Assembly (NCBI GenBank): GCA_016926395.1
Contig: JAFGOT010000003.1
Coordinates: 1 to 28,843 of the forward strand
Source of the DNA: Candidatus Woesearchaeota archaeon
GTDB lineage: Archaea > Nanobdellota > Nanobdellia > Woesearchaeales > SKGA01
Reading direction: 5' to 3'
DNA: 28,843 nt
Part shown: one piece after another, positions 10,657 through 28,843 of the stretch
Numbering within the stretch: the stretch's first letter is position 1
How the letters are laid out: each line of letters opens with the position of its first letter
Translations under genes and position numbers: made by a program
Notes under the pieces: generated by a model
What the model saw: only the letters and a program-made list of their open reading frames with translations
What the model was told of the DNA's origin: nothing
The model's database searches: none

Positions 10657-13600
10657 GTGAAAGGTAGTCGTGTGAGTTTATTCTTGGTTGTTTTATCCTT
10701 GTTGTTAGTTTTAGGAAGCAGTGTTGTTTTAGCCGATGGTGAAAAAGTAAATAATCTAGAAAGTTGTGATTCTCATCCAACTTACTTGATGGTTTTTAAT
10801 AAAGATAAACAAGATGGTTATTTACAACACACAAACAGATTTCATGACGTCGATGGCATTGGTGTTGATACTGTTAATGCCTTTGATACTGCCTTTCAAG
10901 AGTCTATTTCTGGAGGTGCAACCTCAAAATGCGTTTCCTCATTTAATCTTGAAACTGAATCTTGGGGGACTGGAAGTTCTTCCTTTGGGGCATTCTTATA
11001 TGTTAAACAACCAATATATTCTGTAACTGCAAAAGTGAAAGGCTGGTATTCTAGCGACCATGATCACAACATTGACTCTTATTTTCATGTATCTATAACG
11101 TCTGTTGATCCGTCAACTCAAAGCATGGATGGTTTATCTTTTGATGGTGGAGAAGAAGGTTCTAATCATTATCTTTTTTTCAAGAATCTCTACGAAGATG
11201 GTCAATGGAGATCTTCTTCTAAAAACATGGACTTAAAACCTGGTTTATATTATGTTGCAGTTGGTTTTGATATTGATGATCGGGATGATGAAGATAAACT
11301 ATCAGACATGGCGGCAGCAGAGTTAGTTATTGGGAGTTACTCCACTACAAACCCTGATAATTCTCAATATTTGCTCCGAACGAATCCCCTTAAACCAGAA
11401 GAATTAATTTCTAAATTGGGTGTGGATTTGTTTGACCAACAAGAAACTTATTGTGTTGATTTTTTGAACGGTGATAAAGCTTGGTTAAATGAACCTGAAA
11501 GAACCGAGGGCGTAACATATGATTTAAACAATCTATGTTGTGGCAATGATTATAATGAAATAAATGCTGATTTTAACTCCCCAATTTATAATGGAGATTA
11601 TGTTTGTTATGGCGGTCAAGGTTGGTTTAAATTTTTAGCAGAAGAGGATACTTGGCAAAATCGTAATGAGGAGACTGATTCTTATTGTTCAACAGGTAAT
11701 GGTCTTAATTCTTTACCGAGTTATTCTTCAGATGAACTAAATTTTATTTCTTCTGATGGTGCTGACGGTTGTTGTGGAGATGATATTAAATTACCTGCTT
11801 CCTGTCAGTTTAAATCTGGTTTTGGTTGTGATGACTTATCTGTAGATAAATGTAGTTCCGTTTCTGGTTGTTTTAGAGACGGTACCTGTAAAAAAGCAGG
11901 AACTTCTTTTCCTAGTTCTTGTTCCAGTTTGTCTGAATCAGAGTGTTCTAGTGTTCCTGGTTGTAGGGCGGACTATACTTATCCTTGTGGTAATGTTGCA
12001 ATTGCAGGTCAAACTAACACGCCTTCAATACCTTTAGTAAGTGGTTTTACTTATACCGATTGTGGCGGTAATAATCCTCCTCCGCCTGTTTATAATGGTT
12101 GTTCTGGGACACCAAGCTGTTCAGCATTAAGTTCATCATCTTGTGGTTATTATCCTAGTTACTGTTCTTGGCAACCCGATAACTTTTGTTCCGGAACTCC
12201 CAAATCTTATGTTTGTGAAAATAAGCAAACGGCTGACGGTTGCTTAGCTGTAAATGAAAACGCTGGAGAAAATGTTTGTTTATGGAATAGTTTATCTATT
12301 GGAGCGGATGTGGGTTACGTAACGGGTTCAAAAAGTAGCAGTGGTTATTGTAAACTAAAAGAGGAGCTAGGTATCTGTTTTGTTGAACCCGAGCCGTGTA
12401 ATACTTATACTGGTTCTTTGTTAGGTTGGTCGGGTTGTACTTTGGCTGGTTGTTCTGTTGAATTTCAAACTTCTTCCAGTACATTTGTTTGTTCCGGAAC
12501 TCCAACTGAACAAGTTGGTTCCATTAAGTCCAAATCTGATTGCGATTCAATCAATGGTGTTTGGAAGTCCTCTTCTGATTTATCTACTGGTGTTTGTTCG
12601 GATTTTATTGGGTTTGAATTTTCAACAATGCCAAAGTCTGATTGTGAAAGTTTAACAAGTCCGGGTTTATTTTCTACTAATCAAGATGGTTTTTGGATAA
12701 AGCCTTCAACGTCTAGTTGTGTAAGTTCTACAAAATCTTATACTGATCTAATGGGCACTACATCAACGCCAGTAAATTCTGTCTGCTTAGCAACGCCTAT
12801 TTCAGCTTGCGAGTCAAAACAAGTTGGTTATTATACTTGTGGTGTTCTCTCCTTAGGAGATAAGCTAACGCCTGATTGTGCTTCACGTTCTGAAACATTT
12901 TGTTTGGGATCTTGTGAATGGACACAATCATCTTCTTCCACTGTTTCTTCTAACGAAGGTAGATATTTTTGCAGTAAAGATTTGTCTTATTATGATAATA
13001 ATGCACAAGGTTTAACCTTTTTTGATTTAAGTAATGACGAATCTGTTTGGAAATGGTGGGATGCAAAAGAGAACAACGTTCCATTTAAAATTCATAATAT
13101 TAACAATGTTGATTTTATTAGTAATGCAAAAGAATGGTATTACTGTGCTGCAGGCGGAGAAATTCCAAATTCTAATGCAAAACCCATTCCTGAAGGGGGC
13201 TCTTTTGAACTCTCCGCTAGTTCAGGTTCATTTAGATGTGTTGATACTTTAAATTCTTTAACTGATTTTTTTGAAAGTCACGCAGGCGAAGATGGTTATT
13301 TTTTAGATACGTTTAGTGATAAAGGCTACTTTAGTACTTGTCAAAGTAGCAGCGACCAAGCTTATTGTTGTGTAAGTGGAACGAAATATGGTGAAGATGT
13401 TTATTATAAACAAGGAAAATTTAATGAAAAATGTTTGGGAGCTTGTTATATAGATAAACCTAAAAAAATATCTTCTGTTTGGACTTCAAGTGATGATTCA
13501 ATGATAAGTTTCAAAGAAACTTTTTGTGAACGATTTCCCTGGGATGGTTTATGTGTGGGGAGTTTAGACGGTGATTGGTCTTTTGGTTTAGAATCCGATT

Positions 13601-28500: not shown

Positions 28501-28843
28501 CGGAACTGGCTCACCAATAGATTATATTGAGTACATTTTGAAAAATTCAACTGGAGAATTAAAAACCGGAAATTCAACAAATTTAGAAATAAGTCTTGGA
28601 GAGGAACTAGTTGAAGGAGTAGCGTACACAATTGACGTTACTGCTTATGATAAAGCAGGAAACAAAGGAACAAAATCTAAGGATGTTGTTGCCTCACAGT
28701 TTAATTCTCAAAAATGTGATGTGACTCCGCCAAAGGCAACAATAAGGTCAAACTTGCTTTGGGGCGGAACAAACAACTATATTGATTGTGAAGATTCAGG
28801 TCTTGGATGTTCAACATCTTTTAACTATTATTGGTCTGATGAA
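25532..28843 (+). CDS. Large secreted Ig-like-repeat protein, >=1104 aa, 3' end beyond the window (absent from the ORF track)
   Basis: Translated by hand: GAGGTG RBS at 25521-25526, TTG at 25532, signal peptide (M)RLTNIFLFLLVFILLSVSQSIA, no stop codon through 28843 (3312 nt). DKAGN at 27197, 27494 and 28649. D-x-T/S-x-P domain starts. Confidence 0.9.
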   Translation, partial: MRLTNIFLFLLVFILLSVSQSIAADNSFTCSDYSGPFVCEETNNPIPVITAEYGEEPVDISNDNFALYEGFDKVRVIPTSMINSFQRVEYNFSPDVIILDGFYHFVVLAEDDDGNMKTSNLVLAVDVADMGIWVSSPRVSYMPIEDQNIAIGKSLPFTMTVGTKYDAECRIRPYDNYINPDMAFEFASAYYEFNGGSDIPSTSHSIEIVAQGQNPTNDRSKIELTDRFNYLNPEEDDYVVICRQGIDGEYTYSFEKIYVGYDDTPFTFQANIDPKIIIDNAQAQTEVSISSYGELLHCEYDFSKNQEPELNFENNVGTDSGLINPTIRNFEDFKSSYSKNFSFQDKILYFSPAVTYPYEINVTCYNPAMWSASKLLPFDINISSDFDILFDKDGDYFSTNTPKLTVETTNLATCRYRIGDEGDFKAITSQPQKEHTFTPTKLEEGTHELQVRCLAATTRQKSFTFSTDIGQPAKPNVSMSQYHCGGDFKVNIRPSAGDGLVAYNVSLYNSSPVKAENIVFGPYLTSFSQDEDQTVPAKISNPKNKSIYVWRINAIDKAGNVGNSQDFATTVEDPDSIFCDFTNPEVEISVNVAAVGYQVDLTCKDILSGCMPEYTYSFTGLDGDCITTPPTIKQAYSANPLSFATDGKLCYSVSDKAGNTVNGSRLITPDMSIDIVEPRFGLGTSKTFLLEAKTSRDVVCKHGYRGEQHPQNLNDWYNSLKYSFSEESKTKTHRTEIKASEIVQLDENKAEEEQPWIIICKDGDFLQTKEFNLGYDTSKPIITVKATPNPIVDPGDITTTLTVESDDPVVCTYLDEDGVPIGFEGYDPSDITSYSQKFSTKLSYWGISDGASKQMVACKNVAQNPAEKEYEIKIKLKDEVGIHVQTPQYFNKVPAKLILTTDHVATCSYRFDKDESFLPLGQTGDREHSQLFNKQDGTYKIEVKCTSKSSGLSGTKFVDLIIDSKVPILEIMSKEEICSLSKIDFTVLANGTGSPIDYIEYILKNSTGELKTGNSTNLEISLGEELVEGVAYTIDVTAYDKAGNKGTKSKDVVASQFNSQKCDVTPPKATIRSNLLWGGTNNYIDCEDSGLGCSTSFNYYWSDE

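Follow-up and report, generated by a model that had tools for sequence, protein, structure and literature searches.

A conserved block of giant Cys-rich and pilin-like genes in Woesearchaeales, probably encoding a cell-contact apparatus

Closest described systems and the composition of the block

Archaeal loci that combine type IV pilins with large exported proteins have been described by Makarova et al. in 2016 (PMC4858521): they contain many minor pilins, a large adhesin with a signal peptide, and a C-terminally anchored S-layer-like protein, with conserved cysteines throughout. The present work concerns a block of co-directional genes of about 35 kb in a Candidatus Woesearchaeota archaeon of the order Woesearchaeales (assembly GCA_016926395.1), which encodes four giant Cys-rich proteins, called A to D here, together with pilin-like proteins and a murein hydrolase. 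The window, that is, the whole stretch of DNA analysed (28,843 nucleotides), is the entire contig JAFGOT010000003.1 (C4 in our numbering) of a 1.02-Mb assembly that consists of 40 contigs, has 32 % G+C and is 82.5 % complete; the block occupies parts of two of these contigs, C4 and C15. The block is probably a cell-contact apparatus of these tiny Woesearchaeota-type archaea. More specifically, we lean towards reading it as a pilin-anchored, disulfide-stabilised surface apparatus aimed at bacteria, known here from sequences and predicted models.

A preliminary description of the window recognised no named system of such composition. This statement was too strong, as the loci of Makarova et al. 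(PMC4858521) are similar, and the nearest described systems are found among these complex archaeal type IV pilus loci, namely the Methanococcus Epd-type loci with their PilY-like DUF2341 proteins and the Thermoproteales systems. Like these loci, the block has many minor-pilin-like genes running in the same direction, evolves fast and has conserved cysteines in nearly all of its components. It also shares with them large proteins that carry only a signal (A and C, proteins of a type read as adhesins in those loci) and a protein with a C-terminal transmembrane (TM) segment (D), and in both cases the ATPase/TadC pair that serves the pilins may be encoded in trans. We regard the block as a variant of these loci which, unlike them, is not built around a secretion ATPase and TadC: this core is missing (no T2SSE or T2SSF gene in the block of this genome or of genomes G005, G008 and G042), the giants reach a much greater size (1150-2030 aa) and represent lineage-restricted families seen only in this order, one of them is a modular pilin-like protein of giant size, and a murein hydrolase is carried on a pilin-like head. 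In contrast to the Epd-type loci and to PilY1, there is neither a DUF2341 domain nor a PilY1 beta-propeller; A, B and C have no Pfam or NCBIfam match, and no Pfam family is reached even at E up to 10.

A bacterial parallel is provided by Streptococcus sanguinis, for which modular pilins and minor-pilin lectin complexes (PilB, PilA-PilC) have been reported (PMC8179133, PMC9934059). The block resembles the modular pilins and the PilY1 tips in that a pilin module is fused to functional domains (in B and in the hydrolase protein). It resembles the complexes of minor pilins with PilY1 in that large Sec-exported non-pilin proteins are presumed to be held by minor pilins, as we propose for A and C, and in the presence of a lectin-type or carbohydrate-binding-module (CBM)-type domain. 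The differences are that the block belongs to another domain of life, has no sequence homology to these systems and is known from genes alone, that its leader has the form [KR][GA]Q instead of G↓F-x-x-x-E (the arrow marks the cleavage point), and that its proteins are far larger and its pilin-like genes number 14.

Two further systems can be compared with the block. A 2021 paper (PMC8204110) reports fam00969, a giant murein-like lytic transglycosylase family from the same lineage. Like it, the last protein of the block (1369 aa, on contig C15) has an SLT domain, here together with NlpC/P60, and both suggest contact with bacterial walls; unlike fam00969, A to D have no SLT or hydrolase domain, and the paper describes a protein family and not the block, its pilin-like heads or its giants. 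S-layers of the SlaA/SlaB type resemble the block in that neighbouring genes encode a large protein without an anchor (C) and a stalk that has beta sandwiches and a C-terminal TM segment (D). As to the differences, profile searches of PDB sequences and the ESM Atlas search with C gave no match to such proteins, the tail of D in the cytoplasm is long and its unit varies in copy number, C starts with GTG, and the C/D pair lies among pilin-like genes. Our literature searches returned no description of the block, only the fam00969 giants and a module of lineage-specific unknown families.

Gene structure, topology and conservation

The four exported giants of the preliminary description are confirmed. 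All of them lie on the plus strand (Table 1), and a fifth co-oriented gene that the description did not mention, encoding a Memo-like protein, is located between A and B. The spacers between A, the Memo-like gene, B, C and D are 67, 35, 77 and 14 nucleotides, respectively. A, C and D have a Sec-type N-terminal hydrophobic segment, and in B the sequence KKAQ precedes a hydrophobic stretch that spans residues 26-44. This agrees with the three Sec-like signals and the one pilin-like signal proposed earlier; the hydrophobic segments were located with a simple hydropathy scan. In A, B and C the N-terminal hydrophobic segment (residues 8-26 in A, where it is the sole one) is not followed by any further TM segment, and the same is found in all orthologues examined, so the earlier observation that these three proteins lack a C-terminal anchor holds.

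The giants are indeed rich in Cys and acidic residues. Cysteine makes up 5.0, 3.3, 5.3 and 2.4 % of A, B, C and D, respectively, compared to a genome median of 0.78 % and a 99th percentile of 4.5 %, while Asp and Glu together account for 13-16 %. The Cys counts are even in all four proteins (102, 38, 76 and 38), and dozens of cysteines are invariant across the orthologues of the giants. A 588-aa protein encoded elsewhere in this genome (G000:C26, L069:925-2688) has a His-rich N-terminus, one TM segment and two extracytoplasmic GILT/DsbA-like thioredoxin domains with CPYG motifs; this oxidoreductase is a candidate catalyst for the disulfides of the giants. As to the start codons, A and C begin with GTG or TTG both here and in most orthologues, which may keep the translation of the giants low; the orthologues of B mostly begin with ATG.

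Table 1. Genes and protein regions of the block within the window (strand as read; residue numbers refer to the protein named)
Feature	Position	Strand	Description
Gene A	10657-16737	+	2026 aa, GTG start, Sec-exported, 5.0 % Cys, no membrane anchor
A, N-terminal part, residues 1-739	10657-12873	+	hypervariable; rich in Cys, Ser and Gly
A, core, residues 740-1910	12874-16386	+	conserved, many invariant Cys
A, CBM-like beta jelly roll (predicted), residues ~1199-1349	14251-14703	+	
Memo-like gene	16805-17674	+	289 aa, between A and B
Gene B	17710-21165	+	1151 aa, TTG start, modular pilin-like
B, leader (to KKA↓Q, putative) and long N-terminal helix, residues 21-93	17710-17988	+	
B, two Ig/PKD/cadherin-like beta sandwiches, residues ~400-671	18907-19722	+	
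B, Cys-rich C-terminal region, residues ~680-1151	19747-21162	+	more than 20 invariant Cys, mostly pLDDT <50
Gene C	21243-25517	+	1424 aa, GTG start, Sec-exported, 5.3 % Cys, no anchor
Gene D, first 1104 residues	25532-28843	+	Sec signal and ectodomain; open at contig end
D, repeat unit copy 1, residues ~122-619	25895-27388	+	
D, repeat unit copy 2, residues ~621-1104	27392-28843	+	contains Big_13 Ig-like match

The preliminary description also expected the locus to continue beyond the window, and this is the case: D is completed on contig C15, with 13 further genes behind it, so that A to D make up the upstream half of the block. The end of C4 and the reverse complement of the end of C15 abut in frame and without overlap, D continuing on the minus strand of G000:C15, and of the D orthologue of G005, the part as far as residue 1083 is matched by the window and the part from residue 1085 onwards by the C15 end. 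The completed D, of about 1553 aa, consists of the signal, the ectodomain, Cys-rich DCGG-type modules, a TM segment at residues ~1263-1281 and a cytoplasmic tail of ~270 aa, which is rich in Lys, Glu and Gln and of coiled-coil character. This arrangement of signal, TM segment and tail is found in 13 of 13 D orthologues, and the picture of giants that are all unanchored has to be abandoned for D. The ectodomain is a tandem duplication of a multi-domain unit of ~480 aa (hhalign of the two halves: probability 100 %, E 4.5e-44, 418 columns, 21 % identity), and the Big_13 match falls on residues 1004-1049 with E 1.4e-13. The duplication is visible only with profiles; plain BLASTP self-comparison of A to D gave no repeats. 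Species of the same family have one copy of the unit (proteins of 923-1102 aa), two copies (1433-1614 aa) or three (2159 aa), and the length of the stalk therefore differs by whole units between species.

The products of the 13 genes behind D have a prepilin-like or hydrophobic N-terminus. The first four (d1-d4) begin with KKGQ, SKGQ, QKAQ and KKAQ, each followed by a hydrophobic run, and the remaining ones with a basic stretch and one hydrophobic segment. In the last protein, the matches to NlpC/P60 (E 4e-8) and SLT (E 4e-5) make bacterial cell walls the likely target. The hydrolase gene is followed by a gene for a small signal-plus-TM protein and then by RPA-like and other housekeeping genes.

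In relatives, the giants are collinear and strongly co-conserved, the point on which the preliminary description had staked its proposal. The order A-Memo-B-C-D is present in 16 of 16 genomes fetched from the family, as far as their contigs reach, and on single contigs of G008, G003, G012, G001 and G013 the genes from A to the hydrolase are collinear, with the same housekeeping flanks. Five other families sampled from the order, one of them with a complete genome of 774 kb, have retained the arrangement B-C-D-d1 to d4; an A homologue precedes B in two of the five, and RNase P-like or RPA-like flanks are found in most. The identity to orthologues is 23-45 % for the block proteins and 45-84 % for the housekeeping flanks. 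That the gene order is kept across the order, with sequences drifting to 23-35 % identity, argues for a functional link between the genes of the block.

The pilin-type protein claimed among the giants is B, on account of its prepilin-type head and its predicted pilin-like fold. The prepilin-type site reads ...SKKA followed, after the putative cleavage point, by QVTIFVILGIVFLF. In an alignment of 16 homologues, 13 of which come from the syntenic locus, the head has the consensus M-x-[KR]-[KR]-[GA]-Q plus a hydrophobic run (M.[KR][KR][GA]Q.T[IL]FVI.GI), with Q25 and G33 invariant. From its TTG start, B has a longer leader than this consensus, and this start is supported by a paralogue on contig C15 whose leader is equally long (MKNKNTRAQKK...KKAQ). 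In public gene calls, the start of B is placed at an internal ATG that lies 43 codons further on (window 17710-17838); the database version of the protein is thus 43 aa shorter, and annotation pipelines miss the prepilin-type head. In the AlphaFold model of B, built from 16 sequences and with an overall predicted local distance difference test score (pLDDT) of 61, the helices 21-67 and 70-93 are followed by a small sheet with strands within residues 111-137 (pLDDT 74-89). The N-terminus is hence predicted to adopt the lollipop arrangement of pilins, i.e., a helix followed by a sheet. Past this head, the model has further mixed domains and then the Cys-rich tail.

A profile of B matches 60 of the 61 genomes of the order, and its first ~90 positions match several other proteins per genome. 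In a tblastn search against the present genome, the N-terminus of B was the only part of the giants with matches elsewhere; A, C and D have no paralogues. A word-based protein homologue search with B, a method that needs shared words, gave only five matches. Two places elsewhere in this genome are worth recording in this connection. At C15:8601-16118, an 805-aa protein with the long leader of B is encoded near a 1256-aa exported protein, and at C38:18766-24785 a 151-aa protein with the motif GRAQAAVEYL is encoded directly upstream of an 1840-aa protein with 7.7 % Cys, so that at C38, too, a Cys-rich giant is coupled with a pilin-like gene.

A can be divided into a variable and a conserved part. 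The column identity to orthologues is ~0.1 over residues 1-739. Within this part, residues ~500-700 (window 12150-12760) form a Cys/Ser/Thr/Gly-rich stretch that occurs only in this genome, 99 % of the other sequences being gapped over 501-700, and it may be a recent insertion or expansion. Searched against 1.84 billion proteins, the profile of the core retrieved 333 representative clusters at E≤1e-3, of which 165 reached E≤1e-30. In a phylum-wide sample, the core was found in 55 of 401 genomes (26 of 280 genera), every match being in the order of the window. The AlphaFold model of the core, built from 42 homologues, is compact and confident (pLDDT 74, predicted template modelling score 0.71), and the fold of its CBM-like domain is predicted to be a beta jelly roll of the CBM11/CBM30 type. 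For the core beyond this domain no fold match was obtained, in whole-model searches that barely probe the remaining ~1000 residues, and we do not claim a new fold for A. When all PDB sequences were searched with profiles of A, B and C, there was no match below E 0.01.

For C, full-length orthologues are present in 13 of 13 genomes of the genus and in three of four of the sister genus, and ~60 cysteines are invariant across 14 orthologues. These orthologues carry CarboxypepD_reg (6 of 14), Big_13, Y_Y_Y, one fn3 and one DUF4215 match, none of which is found in the C of the window. Searches with C in the ESM Atlas gave scores of at most 0.77, which are uninformative, and a search of genome contigs for related loci confirmed none. 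The module composition proposed earlier for the giants can accordingly be kept in part. The CBM-like jelly roll in A is supported, the Ig-like domains in B and D (Big_13) are confirmed, and fn3 is limited to the one match just mentioned. The TSP1 repeats have no support from hidden Markov models: there is no TSP_1 match in C or in 13 orthologues, and only a W..WSxC motif is similar, so this assignment was rejected.

The machinery that pilins of this kind would need is encoded in trans. The genome has a single A24 prepilin peptidase (C9:1175-1534), three T2SSE-type ATPases (C19:64461, C19:81808 and C15:20609) and four T2SSF (TadC-type) domains, all on contig C19. Two ATPase-TadC sets with adjacent pilin-like genes are located at C19:62500-67500 and 80000-84700. 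AglB is encoded on contig C2, and VKOR was not found in this 82.5 %-complete genome. The components that the preliminary description had suggested looking for are thus largely present, including the GILT/DsbA-like oxidoreductase, with the exception of VKOR, and the pilus machinery lies outside the block. According to a 2020 preprint (10.1101/2020.05.14.094862), DPANN genomes lack the components of type IV pili; in contrast, the present genome does encode the peptidase, the ATPases and the platform proteins.

Proposed apparatus and competing explanations

In the scheme that we propose, the single A24 prepilin peptidase would process the pilin-like proteins, and with the help of an ATPase/TadC pair encoded elsewhere they would form either a short filament or a bundle rooted in the membrane. 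A and C would be retained at the surface by non-covalent contacts with B and its paralogues, much as PilY1 is by minor pilins. A would contribute its conserved core for docking, its CBM-like domain for glycan binding and its hypervariable N-terminus as the contact face. D would set the distance from the cell and provide a link to the cytoplasm, and the hydrolase at the end of the block would open the bacterial peptidoglycan. A more far-reaching version is a contact organelle derived from the type IV pilus and present throughout the order, with which these archaea would grip and breach bacterial hosts. Its short filament or bundle of pilin-like proteins would bear disulfide-locked A, B and C as a tip or sheath, a stalk of D repeat units would keep these away from the cell, and murein hydrolases would form the end. 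We put this version forward tentatively, as a possibility with somewhat more against it than for it.

The interpretation given in the preliminary description, a pilin-type filament on which unanchored giants assemble, is partly supported: the prepilin-type head and the predicted pilin fold of B agree with it, but D is anchored and the block is larger than the four giants. Several points weigh against the pilin-anchored apparatus itself. That A and C assemble on a filament is something that we only infer. The model of B is of moderate quality, as its pLDDT indicates, and the pilin head had no match to a solved pilin in whole-model searches that are dominated by the Ig-like domains, the head alone not having been searched. 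The curated class III models PF04021 (Class_IIIsignal) and TIGR02537 (arch_flag_Nterm), which are only 27-33 positions long, miss B and all other genes of the block, and they match other genes of this genome (C19:57855, C38:18781 and C22:7422). The pilin assignment rests, therefore, on the conserved motif and the predicted fold. In addition, no ATPase, TadC or peptidase gene is found in or near the block of this genome; there is no such machinery on the block contigs of ~130 kb in G005 and G008, and in the complete genome G042 at least 55 kb separate the block from the nearest such gene. Among the block genes none was recognised as an obvious small major pilin, and the Memo-like gene inside it has no role in the model.

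The main rival explanation is an S-layer-like envelope, in which C, and perhaps A, would form an outer canopy and D a membrane stalk, in the manner of SlaA and SlaB of Sulfolobales, and in which the pilin-like genes would belong to a separate neighbouring system. The unanchored C and, 14 nucleotides downstream, D with its beta-sandwich domains and C-terminal TM segment are what one would expect from such a pair. The block is also single-copy, vertically inherited, flanked by housekeeping genes and order-wide, which fits a core envelope component, and Makarova et al. use the term S-layer-like for analogous C-terminally anchored, Cys-containing proteins (PMC4858521). However, it would be unusual for a cell's most abundant protein to begin with GTG or TTG, as A and C do, the D stalk varies by 480-aa units within one genus, and the N-terminal third of A is hypervariable. 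Across families, moreover, the giants remain in line with the hydrolase gene and the pilin-like genes, and no sequence or fold match to a solved S-layer protein stood out in the PDB profile searches of A, B and C or with the models of B and the A core. We consider this explanation unlikely, although it deserves more attention than the other two.

The absence of assembly genes from the block would also be understandable if there were no common machine at all, i.e., if the block were a surface-protein island of independent adhesins or exo-proteins, with the pilin-like heads acting as plain membrane anchors, as in the Sulfolobus bindosome, and without a filament. The lack of an identified major pilin candidate, the occurrence of pilin-like heads on many unrelated proteins of 700-800 aa across these genomes, and the silence of the class III models on the block are all consistent with this. 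It does not account for a gene order that is kept over a whole order of fast-evolving genomes despite 23-35 % identity, and a plain signal anchor would not need the conserved [KR][GA]Q site; we rate it somewhat below the S-layer-like envelope. Many minor-pilin-like genes without a clear major pilin are also typical of type II secretion and Com operons, and the block could accordingly be a pseudopilus-type device (type II secretion system or Com pilus) that exports the giants or imports DNA. Archaea of this kind have, however, no outer membrane to cross, and the signals of A, C and D are of the ordinary Sec type. Among the block genes scanned there is neither a ComEC/ComEA-type gene nor a secretin, and the Ig and CBM domains, which are of adhesin type, point outward, as do the murein hydrolases. 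A pseudopilus is thus very improbable. Among the readings considered, the pilin-anchored contact apparatus directed at bacteria is the one that we retain.

Neighbouring genes and implications for Woesearchaeota

Upstream of the giants, the window contains archaeal housekeeping genes: a TrmB-like regulator, TBP, MCM, a pseudouridine-synthase-like gene and an RNase P p30-like gene. TBP and MCM, together with the labels of the database relatives of the giants (Woesearchaeota or Nanoarchaeota), agree with the earlier assignment to a DPANN-type archaeal genome. At window positions 7229-9125, an E1-like gene, a gene for a 64-aa protein ending in GG, and a TtuA/Ncs6-like gene stand together as a compact module of the tRNA-thiolation type. 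We also considered a mobile or horizontally acquired island and rejected it, in view of the even GC content across the window, the housekeeping flanks and the position conserved across the order.

The Memo-like gene, the only Memo copy of the genome, matches PF01875 (E 6e-35, 121 bits), and its product is cytoplasmic. Judging from the comparison with human MEMO1 (7m8h), the active site is degenerate, with most of the metal and active-site residues lost: the first His is kept (PHAPY), and SHH is replaced by SQT, DFCH by NLTS and the Cys by Ser. The protein is 47-60 % identical across the family. Its gene is located between A and B only in the family of the window (f1) and in G048, and was not found at the locus of four other families.

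In groundwater and sediments, Woesearchaeota and related lineages belong to the commonest uncultured archaea, and the block bears on the question of how they attach to a host, and to which host. It joins 14 pilin-like proteins, four giant Cys-rich surface proteins and murein hydrolases, and it suggests that the partner is bacteria rather than archaea. The present analysis adds the join of contigs C4 and C15, the anchor, tail and copy-variable unit of D, the models of B and of the A core, and the restriction of A to a single order. The giants are large families without a solved relative; in the core of A, 1170 residues are modelled confidently and only 150 of them match a known fold. Defined candidates for study are now available, namely the core of A with its CBM-like domain, the pilin head of B and the variable-length stalk D. 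If the proposal of a contact organelle of this kind is true, episymbiosis or predation across domains by DPANN archaea would become accessible to direct tests.

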